This document shows positions 48,377 to 63,991 of a stretch of 64,000 nucleotides of DNA, in pieces. Source of the DNA: a virus; IMG/VR virus record IMGVR_UViG_3300042399_001709, positions 16,784 to 80,783 of that record, one strand, 5' to 3'. The number at the start of each line of letters is the position of its first letter. Positions within the stretch are counted from its first letter, which is position 1. The position numbers and the translations under genes were made by a program. The notes beneath the pieces are model-generated. The model saw only the letters and a list, made by a program, of their open reading frames with translations, was not told the origin of the DNA and made no database searches.

Positions 48377-48425
48377 GCGGGAAACCCCGCCAACACATCC
48401 TAAGGCATCGGTATTCGCCTGTCAA
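48377..48425 (-). promoter_or_regulatory. sigma70 promoter with GUUU-loop leader hairpin
   Basis: TTGACA-17-TAGGAT, then GCGGG-GTTT-CCCGC and AGTAGGAGG. Confidence 0.7.
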
Positions 48426-48979
48426 ATCCTCCGCGTTGAGTCGCACGCCCAGGCCTGGTACCTGTACCCCAGGTTAAGAATCTGGAAGGTGGAAAATGCC
48501 TTTGGGGTAAAGCCGGAGGCTAAAAGCATTTCCCGCACACCGTCGCTGTCCCAGCCCCAATAGTGCTCTTTATTATTGTTGTCAATCTCTCCATCTGGGG
48601 TCGTAAGGATTAAGTGCTTTGCCTTCTTGCTGATCTCCACTAAAACCTCATCTGGGTTGTCAAGGTGTTCGATGGTCTCAGAGCAGATAAACAAATCGAC
48701 CTCAGGGATCTCGTGGATGGTTTTTTCAATTGGTCCTACAAATTGATACGAAGGGGCAAAGTCTCCGATGTACCTTGTATCCGCCGGCAGAGCGCTGATG
48801 ATCGTTGCGTCCCCGGCAGATAGATCAGCAATAGTCTTAACATTAGGAAAATACGAAGCTAGCGCAATGGTCATCTTTACCCTGAGAATGTGGTCTTCCC
48901 ACTGCCTATGCTGATGCGGTGTCTGGTAAATCTCTGCTAGCCGAGCATCTGAGTGTTTTTGGCGAAGTCGAATCCTCAC
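48422..48979 (-). CDS. class I SAM-dependent methyltransferase-like protein
   Basis: IADLSAGDA, DLFICSETIEHLDNP, LILTTP. Confidence 0.7.
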   Translation of the reverse strand: MRIRLRQKHSDARLAEIYQTPHQHRQWEDHILRVKMTIALASYFPNVKTIADLSAGDATIISALPADTRYIGDFAPSYQFVGPIEKTIHEIPEVDLFICSETIEHLDNPDEVLVEISKKAKHLILTTPDGEIDNNNKEHYWGWDSDGVREMLLASGFTPKAFSTFQILNLGYRYQAWACDSTRRI

Positions 48980-49209
48980 GAGTTAATGCCTTTGGACTTC
49001 TTCATCGCTGCGGCCATTGCCTTTACGGGGTCTGGGTTGATTGGCCGAAGGAACTTCATCTCTGCCAGCCGGTCGTCAAGAAGCTCGTCCATCGAAGTCC
49101 TCTCAACCCTAAGCGCCAGCTGCTCACACCCCGTGCTGCAGCAGCGGCTTTCAGTCGGTTGCTCCATGGGGTTGCCGCAATAGAAGCAGCATCGTCCGCT
49201 TTCGGTCAT
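48976..49209 (-). CDS. small zinc-finger protein
   Basis: CFYC...CCSTGC; 4-nt overlaps. Confidence 0.5.
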   Translation of the reverse strand: MTESGRCCFYCGNPMEQPTESRCCSTGCEQLALRVERTSMDELLDDRLAEMKFLRPINPDPVKAMAAAMKKSKGINS

Positions 49210-49622
49210 GGCTGCTTACCGGTGCCATCGGAGTACGGCCGCATTTTACGCATTCTGCTTGGGTGCCGCAGCGTTTTCATGGCGGCGTTCTCAATCTGGC
49301 GAACACGCTCACGGGAGAGGCTAAACTCTGCGCCGATCTCTTCCATGGTCATCGGGCGGGGAAAACCAATGCCGTATCGCATGGACAGGATCTGCCGGTC
49401 ACGCGAAGGCAGGGAGTCAAGAACCGAGTGAACCGCCTCTACCATGGCGTTCCTCATGGCCTCGGTCAGTGGGTCGGCTGCGTGCTCATCTTTGAGAAAA
49501 TCTCCAAAGGAGCTGTCGCTCTCCTCAGACACCGGCGCATCTAACGAGGTAAGGTACTCTGTGTCTAGGAGCTTTTTGAGCTCGCGCACATCTTCAGCTG
49601 TGACAATTTTCTTTCGGGTCAT
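49206..49622 (-). CDS. truncated sigma70-like protein (regions 3.2-4 only)
   Basis: SLDAPVSEESDSSFGDFLKD...L..RDRQIL.MRYG...TMEEIG..F.LSRERVRQIE..A...LRHPSR; no region 2. Confidence 0.85.
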   Translation of the reverse strand: MTRKKIVTAEDVRELKKLLDTEYLTSLDAPVSEESDSSFGDFLKDEHAADPLTEAMRNAMVEAVHSVLDSLPSRDRQILSMRYGIGFPRPMTMEEIGAEFSLSRERVRQIENAAMKTLRHPSRMRKMRPYSDGTGKQP

Positions 49623-49825
49623 GACTGGGCCTCCCTCTGCTTCTTTCGCGCTTGATATGCGCGTTGATATTCCCTCCGGCGAGCCATGTGCTCAGGGGTG
49701 CGGTATTTCCGCCACTCTTGACTCTCGCTTTCGCAGGCGATGCACTTTGGCGATTCGGGTGTTTTATAAAATTCAGTATCCGTTGGCCAATCTTCCTTGC
49801 AGCGCACGCACACCTTCATTCGCAT
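49619..49825 (-). CDS. small zinc-finger protein
   Basis: KVCVRCKE...EFY...CIAC. Confidence 0.55.
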   Translation of the reverse strand: MRMKVCVRCKEDWPTDTEFYKTPESPKCIACESESQEWRKYRTPEHMARRREYQRAYQARKKQREAQS

Positions 49826-49997
49826 TAGTCTTCCTTTGCGTACTTAACCCGGTAGGCCGCCTCGCGTGCGCGGACGCAAGGATCGCACAGGGGGATGTTG
49901 CCGTCATTATCGCACCAGAGCGCCCTAGCTTGCCCATCGCAGTCGGTGCAGTCTAGCGTTGTTTTTAGTTCTTCGTCCCTGCGGAAAACGAATGGCT

Positions 49998-50219
49998 TCA
50001 CGCTGGCGTACCGCAATTCACCGCAACCGCGTTTCCGGCAATGTCGATGCCGTTTGGAGCAGGGTTCGGATAGACACTGACCTCATACCCGCATTTCTCG
50101 CACTGGGCATGGCTGGCAAGATCCCAGCCGGCACCCATCAGGTGGGTGAACTTGGTGAGCTGGTGGCCGCGAGTCTTGGCGACCTTTCGGGCGGTTTTTC
50201 TAAGTTCTCGAGTCTTCAT
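49998..50219 (-). CDS. hypothetical protein
   Basis: TAGGAGG SD; CEKC. Confidence 0.55.
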   Translation of the reverse strand: MKTRELRKTARKVAKTRGHQLTKFTHLMGAGWDLASHAQCEKCGYEVSVYPNPAPNGIDIAGNAVAVNCGTPA

Positions 50220-50376
50220 GGTTCCCTCCTACTAAGGTATCGGGAGGCGGGGTAGGAGTCCCGCCTCAACCGACACAAGTGCCCCACCGGGTTATGGCGA
50301 ACCGTTCTACTTCCGAGAGCAGAGACTCGCATCTCTTTTCCCCGGTTGTTGATGTTCCCCGGCGGGTACAAGAGGA

Positions 50377-50405
50377 ACGGTATCAGGCCGCAAACAGACT
50401 GTCAA
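50377..50405 (-). promoter_or_regulatory. sigma70-type promoter with a long leader
   Basis: TTGACA-17-TACCGT, about 150 nt upstream of the ATG at 50219. Confidence 0.5.
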
Positions 50406-50522
50406 ATCGGGGTTATCGCCGCTTATTCTTACGGGACTCTTTGATCTCGTACCGAGCCTGTTCCACAATGATGAGCACGCCCATGGCTATGGCAACCACC
50501 CATGCCCAATCCCCAAAATCAC

Positions 50523-51176
50523 TCATTTGGCCTTCTCCTTATTTTGCGTTGGCTCATATGTCCACGAGTCTTCGTCACCTAGGCCCCAACGGCCACCCTC
50601 AGCCGAGAACTCTTTGGTGCTGACCTTAAAGTTCGGCATCTTTGGCTCCTTTGCCACAATAGCCTCATCAAGCCACAGCACCCGGTTGTTTGGCTGGGCG
50701 GCAAATTGCCCGTTGTCTAGGCGGATAAAGTTATAGGACTTATGCTCAGAGGGGACACGCGCCCAGTTTGCGTCGATCTCGTTCGGTTCAGTATGTACCA
50801 TGTCAACGGTAAAGAGGTAGTGCCCCTCTCCCCATGTGCCCGCCGGGGTTCGGAACTTACACCGCATATTCTTAAGCACGGCCTTTTCGATCACGCTCAG
50901 CTGGGGGGAGATAGCGTCCCAGAGCTGCAGGTCACCCAGCTTCAAGTCAGGGCTTGGGGTCTCCGGCTTCCAGACAAAGGCGCTGATCGGCAGCTTGTCA
51001 TAGAGCGCACCGTACTCCGGAAGGAACGCTTCGATATACAAGGCGCGGTGGCGGATTGCCTTGACGGTTACCCAATAGGCAGGAGTGAATTCTCCGTGGC
51101 TGTCTTGCAAGTCGCGCAGGTACTCCTTGCGGACGTAGCAGGCAATTGGCGGGATATTTGCAATGACGTATGACAT
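50523..51176 (-). CDS. conserved phage hypothetical protein
   Basis: MSYVIANIPP..CYVRKEYL...GALYDKLPISAF...EHKS...NGQFAAQPNNR. Confidence 0.75.
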   Translation of the reverse strand: MSYVIANIPPIACYVRKEYLRDLQDSHGEFTPAYWVTVKAIRHRALYIEAFLPEYGALYDKLPISAFVWKPETPSPDLKLGDLQLWDAISPQLSVIEKAVLKNMRCKFRTPAGTWGEGHYLFTVDMVHTEPNEIDANWARVPSEHKSYNFIRLDNGQFAAQPNNRVLWLDEAIVAKEPKMPNFKVSTKEFSAEGGRWGLGDEDSWTYEPTQNKEKAK

Positions 51177-63072: not shown

Positions 63073-63099
63073 GCCGGGAAACCTTCCCCCGGTATCACA

Positions 63100-63129
63100 C
63101 CCCCAGAGCTCATCCCTCTGGGGGTTTTT
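63100..63129 (+). terminator. intrinsic terminator
   Basis: CCCCCAGAG-loop-CTCTGGGGG followed by TTTTT. Confidence 0.8.
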
Positions 63130-63229
63130 ATTATTCATTATTCACGCGCACTCTCTACCCCATACCCCGCACCCCAGAAGCTCGCCGGAGCGCGCGCCGG
63201 TACGCTGGCGGCCTACCCGCTATGGGGGC

Positions 63230-63297
63230 TTGCGCTCTGCTGTGGTTGGGTGTAGTATCTAATCACCGGAGCTTTCCGGCGTAGTAGGAAGGAAGGA
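63230..63297 (+). promoter_or_regulatory. sigma70 promoter, GCUU hairpin and SD
   Basis: TTGCGC-17-TAGTAT; CCGGA-GCTT-TCCGG; GTAGTAGGAAGG. Confidence 0.65.
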
Positions 63298-63301
63298 ACC
63301 T

Positions 63302-63757
63302 ATGAACACACAGCAAGCACTAGCAGCAGCGGCGAAGGCCGCAGGTAAGATTACGACTCTGACCGCGTGGAGCGATTGGACAACGCCGCGCACTTTGGAG
63401 CGTCGTGAGGAAGGCGCAGCAGGGCGACAGGCCGAGCACCGCGCGATTGGTCGGGTGAAGGTGTCCGGTGAAGCTCGCTACGATGAGAAGGGGCGCGTCG
63501 CGTTCCTGTTCACGGCTTCCGGTATGCTTGACCGCACGCAAGAGGCCACCGGAATCGTGCTGAACAAGAAGGGCGAGCCTACGCTCTCGCTCATCATTGG
63601 AGCACCTACGGAGTACGGATACACTACGGCCTGTCCGAACGCGGGAAAGCTCGGTACTGCTTGCGAGAAGCGGAAGCCGTTCCACGCGCACCGAACGGTG
63701 AACCTCACGCGCCTCGTGTCGTGGGTCATCGCGGGTGAGGAACAAGTCGAGGGCTAG
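63302..63757 (+). CDS. hypothetical protein
   Basis: 151 aa behind a promoter and SD, followed by a terminator. Confidence 0.65.
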   Translation: MNTQQALAAAAKAAGKITTLTAWSDWTTPRTLERREEGAAGRQAEHRAIGRVKVSGEARYDEKGRVAFLFTASGMLDRTQEATGIVLNKKGEPTLSLIIGAPTEYGYTTACPNAGKLGTACEKRKPFHAHRTVNLTRLVSWVIAGEEQVEG

Positions 63758-63774
63758 CGGCTCGCATTATCTCC

Positions 63775-63819
63775 GAGGCCGTCGCTCCCATCTGTGCGGG
63801 AGTGGCGGCCTCTCTCTTT
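63775..63819 (+). terminator. probable intrinsic terminator
   Basis: GAGGCCGTCGCTCCC-loop-GGGAGTGGCGGCCTC followed by TCTCTTT. Confidence 0.65.
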
Positions 63820-63941
63820 GTCGCAGCTCCGATTATCAGTTAGTCATTATTCAGGCCGTACCTGTACCCGCGACCCCATACCCCATACCCCAACACTTTG
63901 AGCTGCTGCGGGATAGGGCGGCGATAGGCCAGGGGGGGTGC

Positions 63942-63991
63942 TTGACTTCTCCGGTGGGTCGTGTATTCTCTATGAGTCGGGGCTTCCCGAT
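63942..63991 (+). promoter_or_regulatory. sigma70 promoter and GCUU hairpin (gene lies beyond the window)
   Basis: TTGACT-16-TATTCT; TCGGG-GCTT-CCCGA. Confidence 0.6.

Follow-up and report, generated by a model that had tools for sequence, protein, structure and literature searches.

What purpose is served by a small hairpin that stands, with one stem after another but nearly always the same kind of loop, behind the early promoters of a tailed phage? The question is raised by IMG/VR virus record IMGVR_UViG_3300042399_001709, a single 80,783-bp contig (G+C 53.8%) whose right-hand 64 kb (positions 16,784 to 80,783; 64,000 nucleotides) constitute the window analysed here, and from whose first letter all positions below are counted. 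An earlier reading of the letters alone (the sequence-only reading) had listed twelve stem-loops in it, most with a loop of a purine, any base, U and U (RNUU; RNTT in the DNA), and had suggested for them antitermination, self-marking against a phage RNase, or protection of the 5′ end. The hairpin is a covarying RNA structure that holds a fixed place relative to the −10 box, is confined to the early region (48.3-64 kb) and is conserved across a clade of related phages. Its most likely function is the protection of early mRNAs by a blunt 5′-terminal hairpin together with a strong Shine-Dalgarno (SD) sequence, a reading to which we give about an even chance; by analogy with known leaders, the hairpin would stabilize the mRNA behind it.

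All twelve stem-loops are present in their places and letter for letter, and a thirteenth, absent from that list, lies at 58248-58263 behind TTGCGA-16-TATTCT. The cassettes run in the order promoter, GC-rich stem of 4-6 bp, four-base loop, purine-rich linker, SD sequence (GGAGG or GGAAGG) and ATG. Their promoters combine a −35 box of the TTGACn type, a spacer of 16-18 nt and a −10 box of the TAnnnT type, several with an upstream TG; the stem follows the −10 box at 5-8 nt, and the loop begins 11-13 nt past it in all twelve copies listed earlier. The linker between stem and SD core measures 7-11 nt and frequently contains UAG, and the predicted 5′ untranslated region is 33-40 nt long. An SD sequence had also been described behind the hairpins, and a strong ribosome-binding site is indeed found 3′ of them, the copy at 63976 running into the contig end. 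Folding free energies (ΔG) range from −5.0 to −9.9 kcal/mol across the 13 copies; when whole leaders are folded the hairpin is kept in 11 of the 13 and the SD sequence is mostly open. The copies are given below, with scores (in bits) from a covariance model that is described after the list.

52504..52517 (+): hairpin 1, 5 bp, loop ACTT; −35 at 52468-52473, −10 at 52491-52496; start codon 52538; extendable to 52502-52519; model match 20.7 bits; ΔG −8.6 kcal/mol
53843..53856 (+): hairpin 2, 5 bp, loop GCTT; −35 at 53808-53813, −10 at 53831-53836; start codon 53878; model match 16.1 bits, outside the training set; ΔG −6.5 kcal/mol
54382..54395 (+): hairpin 3, 5 bp, loop AGTT; promoter 54346-54374; start codon 54414; a competing alternative structure appears when the whole leader is folded
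55293..55306 (+): hairpin 4, 5 bp, loop ACTT; −35 at 55258-55263; start codon 55328, of the Api92-like gene
57749..57764 (+): hairpin 5, 6 bp, deviant loop CTTT, with an ACTT loop readable one base earlier; promoter 57713-57742; start codon 57785; model match 11.3 bits; loops of its orthologues GCTT, GTCT or GTTT
58248..58263 (+): hairpin 6, 6 bp, loop GCTT; TTGCGA at 58213-58218, TATTCT at 58235-58240; start codon 58302; model match 10.4 bits (E=8.6); ΔG −7.3 kcal/mol; flagged as terminator-like
58581..58594 (+): hairpin 7, 5 bp, loop ACTT (6 bp as 58580-58595); promoter 58546-58574; start codon 58619; the best model match, 21 bits
59163..59174 (+): hairpin 8, 4 bp, loop AGTT; −35 at 59126-59131; start codon 59196; the weakest fold, ΔG −5.0 kcal/mol, z −1.9
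61065..61078 (+): hairpin 9, 5 bp including one G-U pair, loop GATT; −35 at 61028-61033; start codon 61100
62290..62305 (+): hairpin 10, 6 bp, loop ACTT; −35 at 62254-62259; start codon 62326
63266..63279 (+): hairpin 11, 5 bp, loop GCTT; TTGCGC at 63230-63235, TAGTAT at 63253-63258; start codon 63302; model match 15.9 bits, outside the training set
63976..63991 (+): hairpin 12, 6 bp, loop GCTT; promoter 63942-63969; contig end 9 nt further on and gene out of view, with SD sequence and gene coming next in the counterparts of relatives L003 and L008; model match 20.6 bits, outside the training set
48376..48391 (−): hairpin 13, 6 bp, loop GTTT; −35 at 48425-48420, −10 at 48402-48397; start codon 48356; ΔG −9.9 kcal/mol

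The covariance model, proposed in the sequence-only reading and run on both strands of the window, gave 33 matches at E≤10, which include all 13 promoter hairpins, 11 of them among the top 15 matches. Nine of the window's own copies were part of the training alignment, and the matches at 63973, 53839 and 63262 stand in the top-ranked set though they lay outside it; built on the hairpin by itself, the model lacks the size needed for specificity.

That such hairpins might be equally common at random positions had been named as a refutation, and they are not. Under a strict rule that demanded promoter, SD sequence and start codon and was applied to the whole 80.8-kb genome, with an RNTT-tetraloop hairpin counted if it started 3-10 nt after the −10 box, 16 sites were found, 12 of which carry a hairpin, 10 a tetraloop and 8 an RNTT loop, against 14 RNTT hairpins at 5000 random anchors. 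The copies at 53843, 58248, 63266 and 63976 were missed by this rule because of a −10 box that is not TAnnnT, a weaker −35 box or the contig end. In the genome at large RNTT loops are ordinary, with 80 of 2088 tetraloop hairpins, and on its plus strand the early region has 7 RNTT hairpins away from promoters, where about 8 are expected from the genome-wide density; the unusual feature is the linkage of RNTT hairpins to promoters rather than RNTT loops as such.

The same linkage is seen in related phages. When the Api92-like early protein (55328-56128) was used as query, 37 loci on viral contigs were retrieved: 26 relatives (L001-L026), at 46-90% protein identity and on contigs of up to 91 kb, and 11 distant loci (L027-L037). 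In the 26 relatives, 307 SD-linked promoter-like sites were counted; a hairpin is present at 259 of them, a tetraloop at 192 and an RNTT loop at 166, compared with 1376 hairpins, 486 tetraloops and 29 RNTT loops per 5000 random anchors; the loci are mutually related, and the counts are of non-independent events. The unrelated loci L027-L037 gave 31 sites with two hairpins and no RNTT loop. When the genome and its relatives are pooled, the commonest loops are ACTT (68), GCTT (50), AGTT (29) and GATT (15), and in 236 of 271 hairpins the distance from the −10 box to the loop start is 11-13 nt. At the orthologous promoter of the Api92-like gene a hairpin is found in 25 of the 26 loci, built on 12 different stems and in every case with an RNTT loop; in the remaining locus, L013, the promoter before this gene is absent. 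A test blind to pairing, in which the sole requirement placed on unique leaders was RNTT at 11-13 nt after the −10 box, found it in 145 of 246 (chance about 8.6%), and at least four contiguous flanking pairs enclose it in 122 of these 145 leaders versus 149 of 3000 random RNTT anchors.

Covariation was measured on 131 unique loop-anchored segments picked without a pairing criterion (alignment A2), this form being used instead of MAFFT alignments of whole orthologous promoters, which misplaced hairpins between sub-clades. In the 6-bp helix 86.4% of cells are paired, compared with 48.4% in column shuffles (none of 500 reached the observed value) and at most 50.5% when partners were slid, and changes on both sides occur at all six pairs. 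From the loop outward the six positions are paired at 0.94, 0.94, 0.94, 0.89, 0.74 and 0.71, beyond which pairing is at the chance level of about 0.44. As in 5′-terminal stabilizers, it is thus the pairing that is conserved and not the sequence of the stem. Of about 679 paired cells, 124 are G-U pairs, and since these would be A-C mismatches on the opposite strand, the sense strand carries the structure. Compensatory changes and G-U pairs had been taken in the sequence-only reading as a sign of selection on RNA structure, and the structure under selection is at the RNA level.

This bears on a different kind of hairpin, the DNA hairpin promoter of phage N4, which lies on the template strand upstream of the start and is used by a virion RNA polymerase where there is no sigma-70 promoter. 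A promoter of this type for a phage-encoded RNA polymerase is brought to mind by short hairpins (5-7 bp) that stand at early genes and have a small conserved loop, and by the giant virion proteins of this phage. We consider it very improbable: each hairpin here has its own near-consensus −35 and −10 boxes at fixed spacing, the G-U pairs of the sense strand would be mismatches on the template strand, the 4464-aa open reading frame (ORF) reads as a tape measure protein, and no RNA polymerase domain was detected in the ORFs scanned, a scan that was not exhaustive.

Transcription from a sigma-70 promoter is expected to start at about the 7th nucleotide after the −10 box. In the 61 unique leaders whose loop begins at 12 nt, pairing exceeds composition-matched shuffles out to the 7th nucleotide (0 of 2000 shuffles) and the 6th (4 of 2000), and beyond the 6th it is at chance. 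In the 56 leaders whose loop begins at 11 nt, the 7th nucleotide is a purine in 100% and the 6th a T in 70%, which fits the usual start context of a pyrimidine at −1 and a purine at +1. Because the helix ends where the sigma-70 start is expected, the predicted RNA begins with a blunt or near-blunt hairpin, the placing of +1 at the helix base being a prediction from promoter geometry.

On this geometry, which is that of a classical 5′-terminal stabilizer, protection is the function that we take as likeliest. Every early transcription unit in the clade would be a stereotyped cassette on a near-consensus promoter of the host sigma-70 type, with the hairpin at the predicted +1 so that the triphosphate end is base-paired, with a single unpaired base at most. 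A blunt stem-loop of this kind would bar enzymes that need a single-stranded 5′ end, either RppH followed by RNase E or RNase J, and in combination with a strongly bound ribosome nearby may produce long-lived, highly translated early messages. The T7 gene 10 leader hairpin belongs among the 5′-terminal stabilizers. RppH and RNase E are described as depending on single-stranded 5′ termini, Bacillus RppH as acting only where two or more nucleotides at the 5′ end are unpaired, and both a 5′ stem-loop and a strongly bound ribosome as stabilizing the mRNA downstream (PMC3997798). The ompA, papA and aprE leaders resemble the phage element in having a short hairpin no more than 1-2 nt from the 5′ end and near a strong ribosome-binding site, with structure mattering over stem sequence and with RppH, RNase E and RNase J excluded from the 5′ end (PMC3997798). 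Each known case is a single gene, and the cases share no loop, whereas in this phage one design is found at 13 promoters, and hundreds of times across the clade, with a conserved R-N-U-U loop. Protection is favoured by the same promoter geometry in all 13 copies, by stems that covary around a fixed loop and by the non-coding RNA at 60491 (see below), which likewise opens with a 5′ helix.

Several points weigh against protection. A protective hairpin needs no particular loop, so protection alone leaves the conservation of the loop unexplained; among the three functions suggested in the sequence-only reading it fits the geometry best and falls short there. Most of the promoters have no terminators between them, and many hairpins would therefore also lie inside longer read-through transcripts. 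In the loop-at-11-nt leaders the outer pairs match column composition (0.79 versus 0.78 and 0.75 versus 0.75), and for these a blunt end is compatible with the data. In public RNA, nine metatranscriptome runs share 0.05-0.12 of the words of the region; four RNA libraries gave low-depth contigs only, which show no pile-up of starts or ends and several of which span promoters, so that the RNA contigs are uninformative on start sites.

The conserved loop calls for an explanation of its own. RNUU is not known to be among the thermodynamically favoured tetraloops, and conservation of the loop across freely changing stems indicates sequence-specific selection on it; under the protection reading this would be selection apart from the stem, via some sequence-specific reader, and such a reader probably exists. 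Since the conserved loop argues for a specific reader, the idea of a tag from the sequence-only reading retains some probability. It is possible, if doubtful, that the RNUU hairpin is a cis-acting identity tag on every early message in this clade of uncultured freshwater-type phages, its reader being a phage early or middle protein or a host nuclease of the RNase E type whose core motif is mimicked; early phage mRNAs would in this way be set apart from host and late mRNAs and their use or destruction timed. As a binding site for a dedicated phage or host protein the tag is somewhat more doubtful still; a factor reading it would single out early messages so that they are transcribed processively, translated preferentially or shut off on schedule by a phage nuclease; for the last, the T4 RegB nuclease, which is reported to act on T4 early mRNAs, offers a precedent (PMC1702504). 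RNTT makes up 166 of the 192 promoter-linked tetraloops in the relatives and is kept on all 12 stems of the orthologous promoter, and triloop and pentaloop variants often hold the R-N-T-T string in another register. Loops drift by sub-clade, with more GCT, ACT, GAA and AAGTN loops in L013, L016-L021 and L025, a pattern to be expected of a co-evolving reader. In 42 ORFs within and beside the early region, Pfam scans revealed no recognizable RNA-binding domain, N-like or other, and no recognizable nuclease domain, a negative that is weak because most early ORFs are ORFans.

Precedents for a protein that binds a hairpin of this kind are lambda boxB with N and HIV TAR with Tat. Lambda boxB has a GNRA-like pentaloop and occurs once or twice per genome beside boxA, well downstream of the start. 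It resembles the present element as a small hairpin early in phage transcripts whose specificity lies in the loop and not in the stem sequence, and differs from it in that here an RNUU tetraloop stands at the predicted +1 of each unit. A look by eye found no boxA-like partner element, and each small operon has its own promoter, so that antitermination is not obviously needed; no evidence in support of this earlier suggestion was found. Self-marking against a HicA-like module fared no better, as no Pfam family was matched at E≤0.01 by it or by the HicB-like ORF, the stretches scanned being 2201-2500 and 41365-41757 of the window.

A second explanation of the loop, which we consider unlikely, is that it displays a site of the RNase E type, cleavage or binding of which by the host enzyme would open the hairpin and set the lifetime of the early message, or would engage or titrate the enzyme. 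The in vivo consensus of RNase E is RN|WUU with the U at +2 as the key determinant (PMC5222698), and the +2 uridine rule is reported for a cyanobacterial RNase E too (PMC8682795). Read as R(−2), N(−1), W(+1) and U(+2), the loop fits four of the five positions of the core motif, including the critical U at +2, and its pattern of conserved positions 1, 3 and 4 and free position 2 is that of the motif. The fit ends at +3, where the U of the motif is found in only 9 of 123 paired closing pairs, and +1, where the motif allows A or U, is only U in the RNUU loop (loop position 3 being nearly always U). RNase E sites are described as single-stranded segments (PMC5222698), and a loop of only four nucleotides, closed by a GC-rich stem, makes a poor substrate. 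The likeness is one between two short degenerate motifs that was spotted after the fact.

The cassette also invites comparison with phage elements that act on DNA or transcription. The PeSL (promoter-early stem-loop) cassettes of the T4-type phages RB49 and phi1 have stem-loops in five positions relative to the promoter, one subclass having the stem-loop downstream of the −10 box, and these are usually G-tract/C-tract, with roles as terminators and recombination sites (PMC2839356). PeSLs are the closest described architecture to the cassette: both are repeated intergenic combinations of promoter, stem-loop and SD sequence in a plastic, ORFan-rich early region, of which 13 are present here (PMC2839356). 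They are unlike in the fixed position, the variable and compensating stems and the conserved loop found here, and in that 11 of the 13 hairpins are not terminator-like, the flags on 54382 and 58248 coming from a pattern test only. A PeSL-like action of the hairpin, as a recombination joint for early ORFans, a read-through attenuator or both, would suit a strong sigma-70-like early promoter with stem-loop and SD sequence repeated through an ORFan-rich region, and the gene content of that region does vary among the relatives. The ends of BLAST homology blocks fall in cassettes in 32 of 183 cases, the cassettes covering 10.7% of the region; this enrichment is small, and intergenic DNA diverges faster in any case. 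Since stems differ between cassettes, the homology available for recombination is short, and the G-U pairs (124 cells) and a helix that ends at the predicted +1 indicate RNA. We regard this explanation as improbable, and the same low estimate covers its other version, an element of the initially transcribed sequence that eases the escape of RNA polymerase.

The SAS and ESAS repeats of Cluster K mycobacteriophages mark, in one orientation, the ribosome-binding sites of non-structural genes, in some cases behind an inverted repeat; the function proposed for them is translational, and a hairpin in ESAS has little support, the changes not being compensatory (PMC3203893). The likeness lies in a phage-wide, orientation-specific signal at ribosome-binding sites and the difference in the arms, which are conserved in sequence in ESAS, whereas here the stems change with compensation and the element goes with promoters (PMC3203893). 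The motif had not been recognized as a described one in the sequence-only reading, and the database searches agree: Rfam gave no matches at gathering thresholds in the whole window and four chance-level matches in 48000-64000 (E 1.9-4.5), none of which overlaps a hairpin. The literature searched, supplementary files lying outside the search, held no description of an RNUU promoter-hairpin motif, and a transcript-mapping paper on Pseudomonas phage had nothing relevant to it (PMC10914365). The element is best described as a probable 5′ stabilizer hairpin within a promoter/stem-loop cassette, whose unexplained conserved loop could prove new.

The distribution of the hairpin narrows what it can be said to mark. 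The term genome-wide tag does not hold, all 13 copies being confined to 48.3-64 kb of the window. That nearly every early transcript carries it is borne out by the 13 copies at early promoters and has to be qualified by several sigma-70-type promoters without an RNTT hairpin. It is missing at the two promoters of non-coding RNAs (60457 and 60762), the promoter of the leftward operon near 51900 and the 42489(−) promoter lack a hairpin, and the weak promoter near 56866, of a helix-turn-helix (HTH) gene, has one with a different loop. An apparent promoter and hairpin at 29490-29562(−) proved to encode the conserved C-terminus of the protein whose gene precedes the tail fibre, and the simple promoter rule therefore yields false positives inside genes. 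The idea that the loop differs at non-early promoters was dropped, since the 29562(−) case is coding and genuine non-early promoters are too few.

The two non-coding stretches are of note in themselves. The first is an RNA of about 290 nt (60491-60781, plus strand) with its own promoter (TTGACT at 60457) and a strong terminator at 60743-60770. It is found in eight relatives at 83-98% identity over 233-300 nt, its first 41-80 nt being kept in five more, and its consensus fold combines a 5′ helix with a 17-bp hairpin, the latter rich in compensatory changes and invariant in its apical segment. In two RNA libraries its depth exceeds that of the rest of the region (17.5 in X3, 10.4 in X4), and it has no Rfam match. 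The second stretch (60762-61010, plus strand) has a TTGACT-17-TAGTCT promoter and a small TCCG/CGGG hairpin; its promoter and first bases are conserved in L001, L003, L008 and L009, and contigs of RNA libraries cover it (X2 record 15, X4 record 30). Pairing of these RNAs (60491-60781 and 60795-61010) with 12 leaders was considered and rejected, the mean best duplex energies being −32.1 and −32.1 versus −33.1 and −33.2 for shuffled sequences.

The phage itself is tailed, with the tape-measure-like ORF mentioned above, a terminase, and tail-fibre and endosialidase-chaperone domains. No near relatives were found by megablast among 50,697 phage records. The terminase is at most 27% identical to those of isolates, matches to the gene for a sigma fragment reach at most 46% identity and come from phage records and metagenome-assembled genomes of several phyla, a search for tRNA genes as clues to the host found none, and the atlas neighbours of the epimerase are viral; none of these comparisons identifies the host. 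The early region is densely packed with small ORFs, the majority without a Pfam family. Among the 42 ORFs scanned, four matched above cut-offs (HTH, RadC-like JAB, sigma regions 3-4 and DUF7249) and two below (XLF_CC and Methyltransf_23). Its recognizable genes include a RadC-like JAB-domain gene (59773-60270, plus strand, E 9.4e-28) and the Api92-like gene with a DUF1281_C domain (55328-56128, plus strand, E 1.6e-13).

Two proteins are of interest for transcription. Sigma-70 region 3 (E 2e-08) and region 4 (E 6.8e-18) alone make up a 138-aa protein (49206-49622, minus strand) encoded in the leftward operon, whose promoter is without the hairpin; it could be an appropriator, or a competitor for −35 recognition, at TTGAC promoters. 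A 151-aa protein (56943-57398, plus strand) has two or three HTH units (HTH_23, Sigma70_r4 and Mor-like) and is a candidate phage transcription regulator. By eye, ATACCCC-like repeats in runs, and with them a palindromic TTAAG-N-CTTAA-like box, can be seen between terminators and the next promoters (60380-60440, 63150-63180 and 63870-63900; also 52440, 57690 and 60420). Within operons stop codon and SD sequence overlap systematically, the TAG that ends the upstream gene being contained in the TAGGAGG ribosome-binding site that serves the following one (53090-53100, 54060-54070, 56110-56125, 58290-58300 and 59760-59770).

If the start sites are confirmed, this clade would provide a clear natural case of a virus whose entire early programme runs on one standard leader, in which a strong promoter is followed by a blunt 5′ hairpin and this by a strong ribosome-binding site. 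The hundreds of natural compensatory variants of the hairpin are a ready data set on how the 5′ ends of bacterial mRNAs are guarded, and, once it is known in which hosts promoter and leader work, the cassette would serve synthetic biology as a compact part for expression. Should the tag reading be true, the hairpin would be the counterpart in a bacterial virus of TAR or of the leader-hairpin systems of eukaryotic viruses, and the answer to what reads the R-N-U-U tetraloop could reveal a new phage regulator of the passage from early to late expression or a new mode of RNase E engagement.

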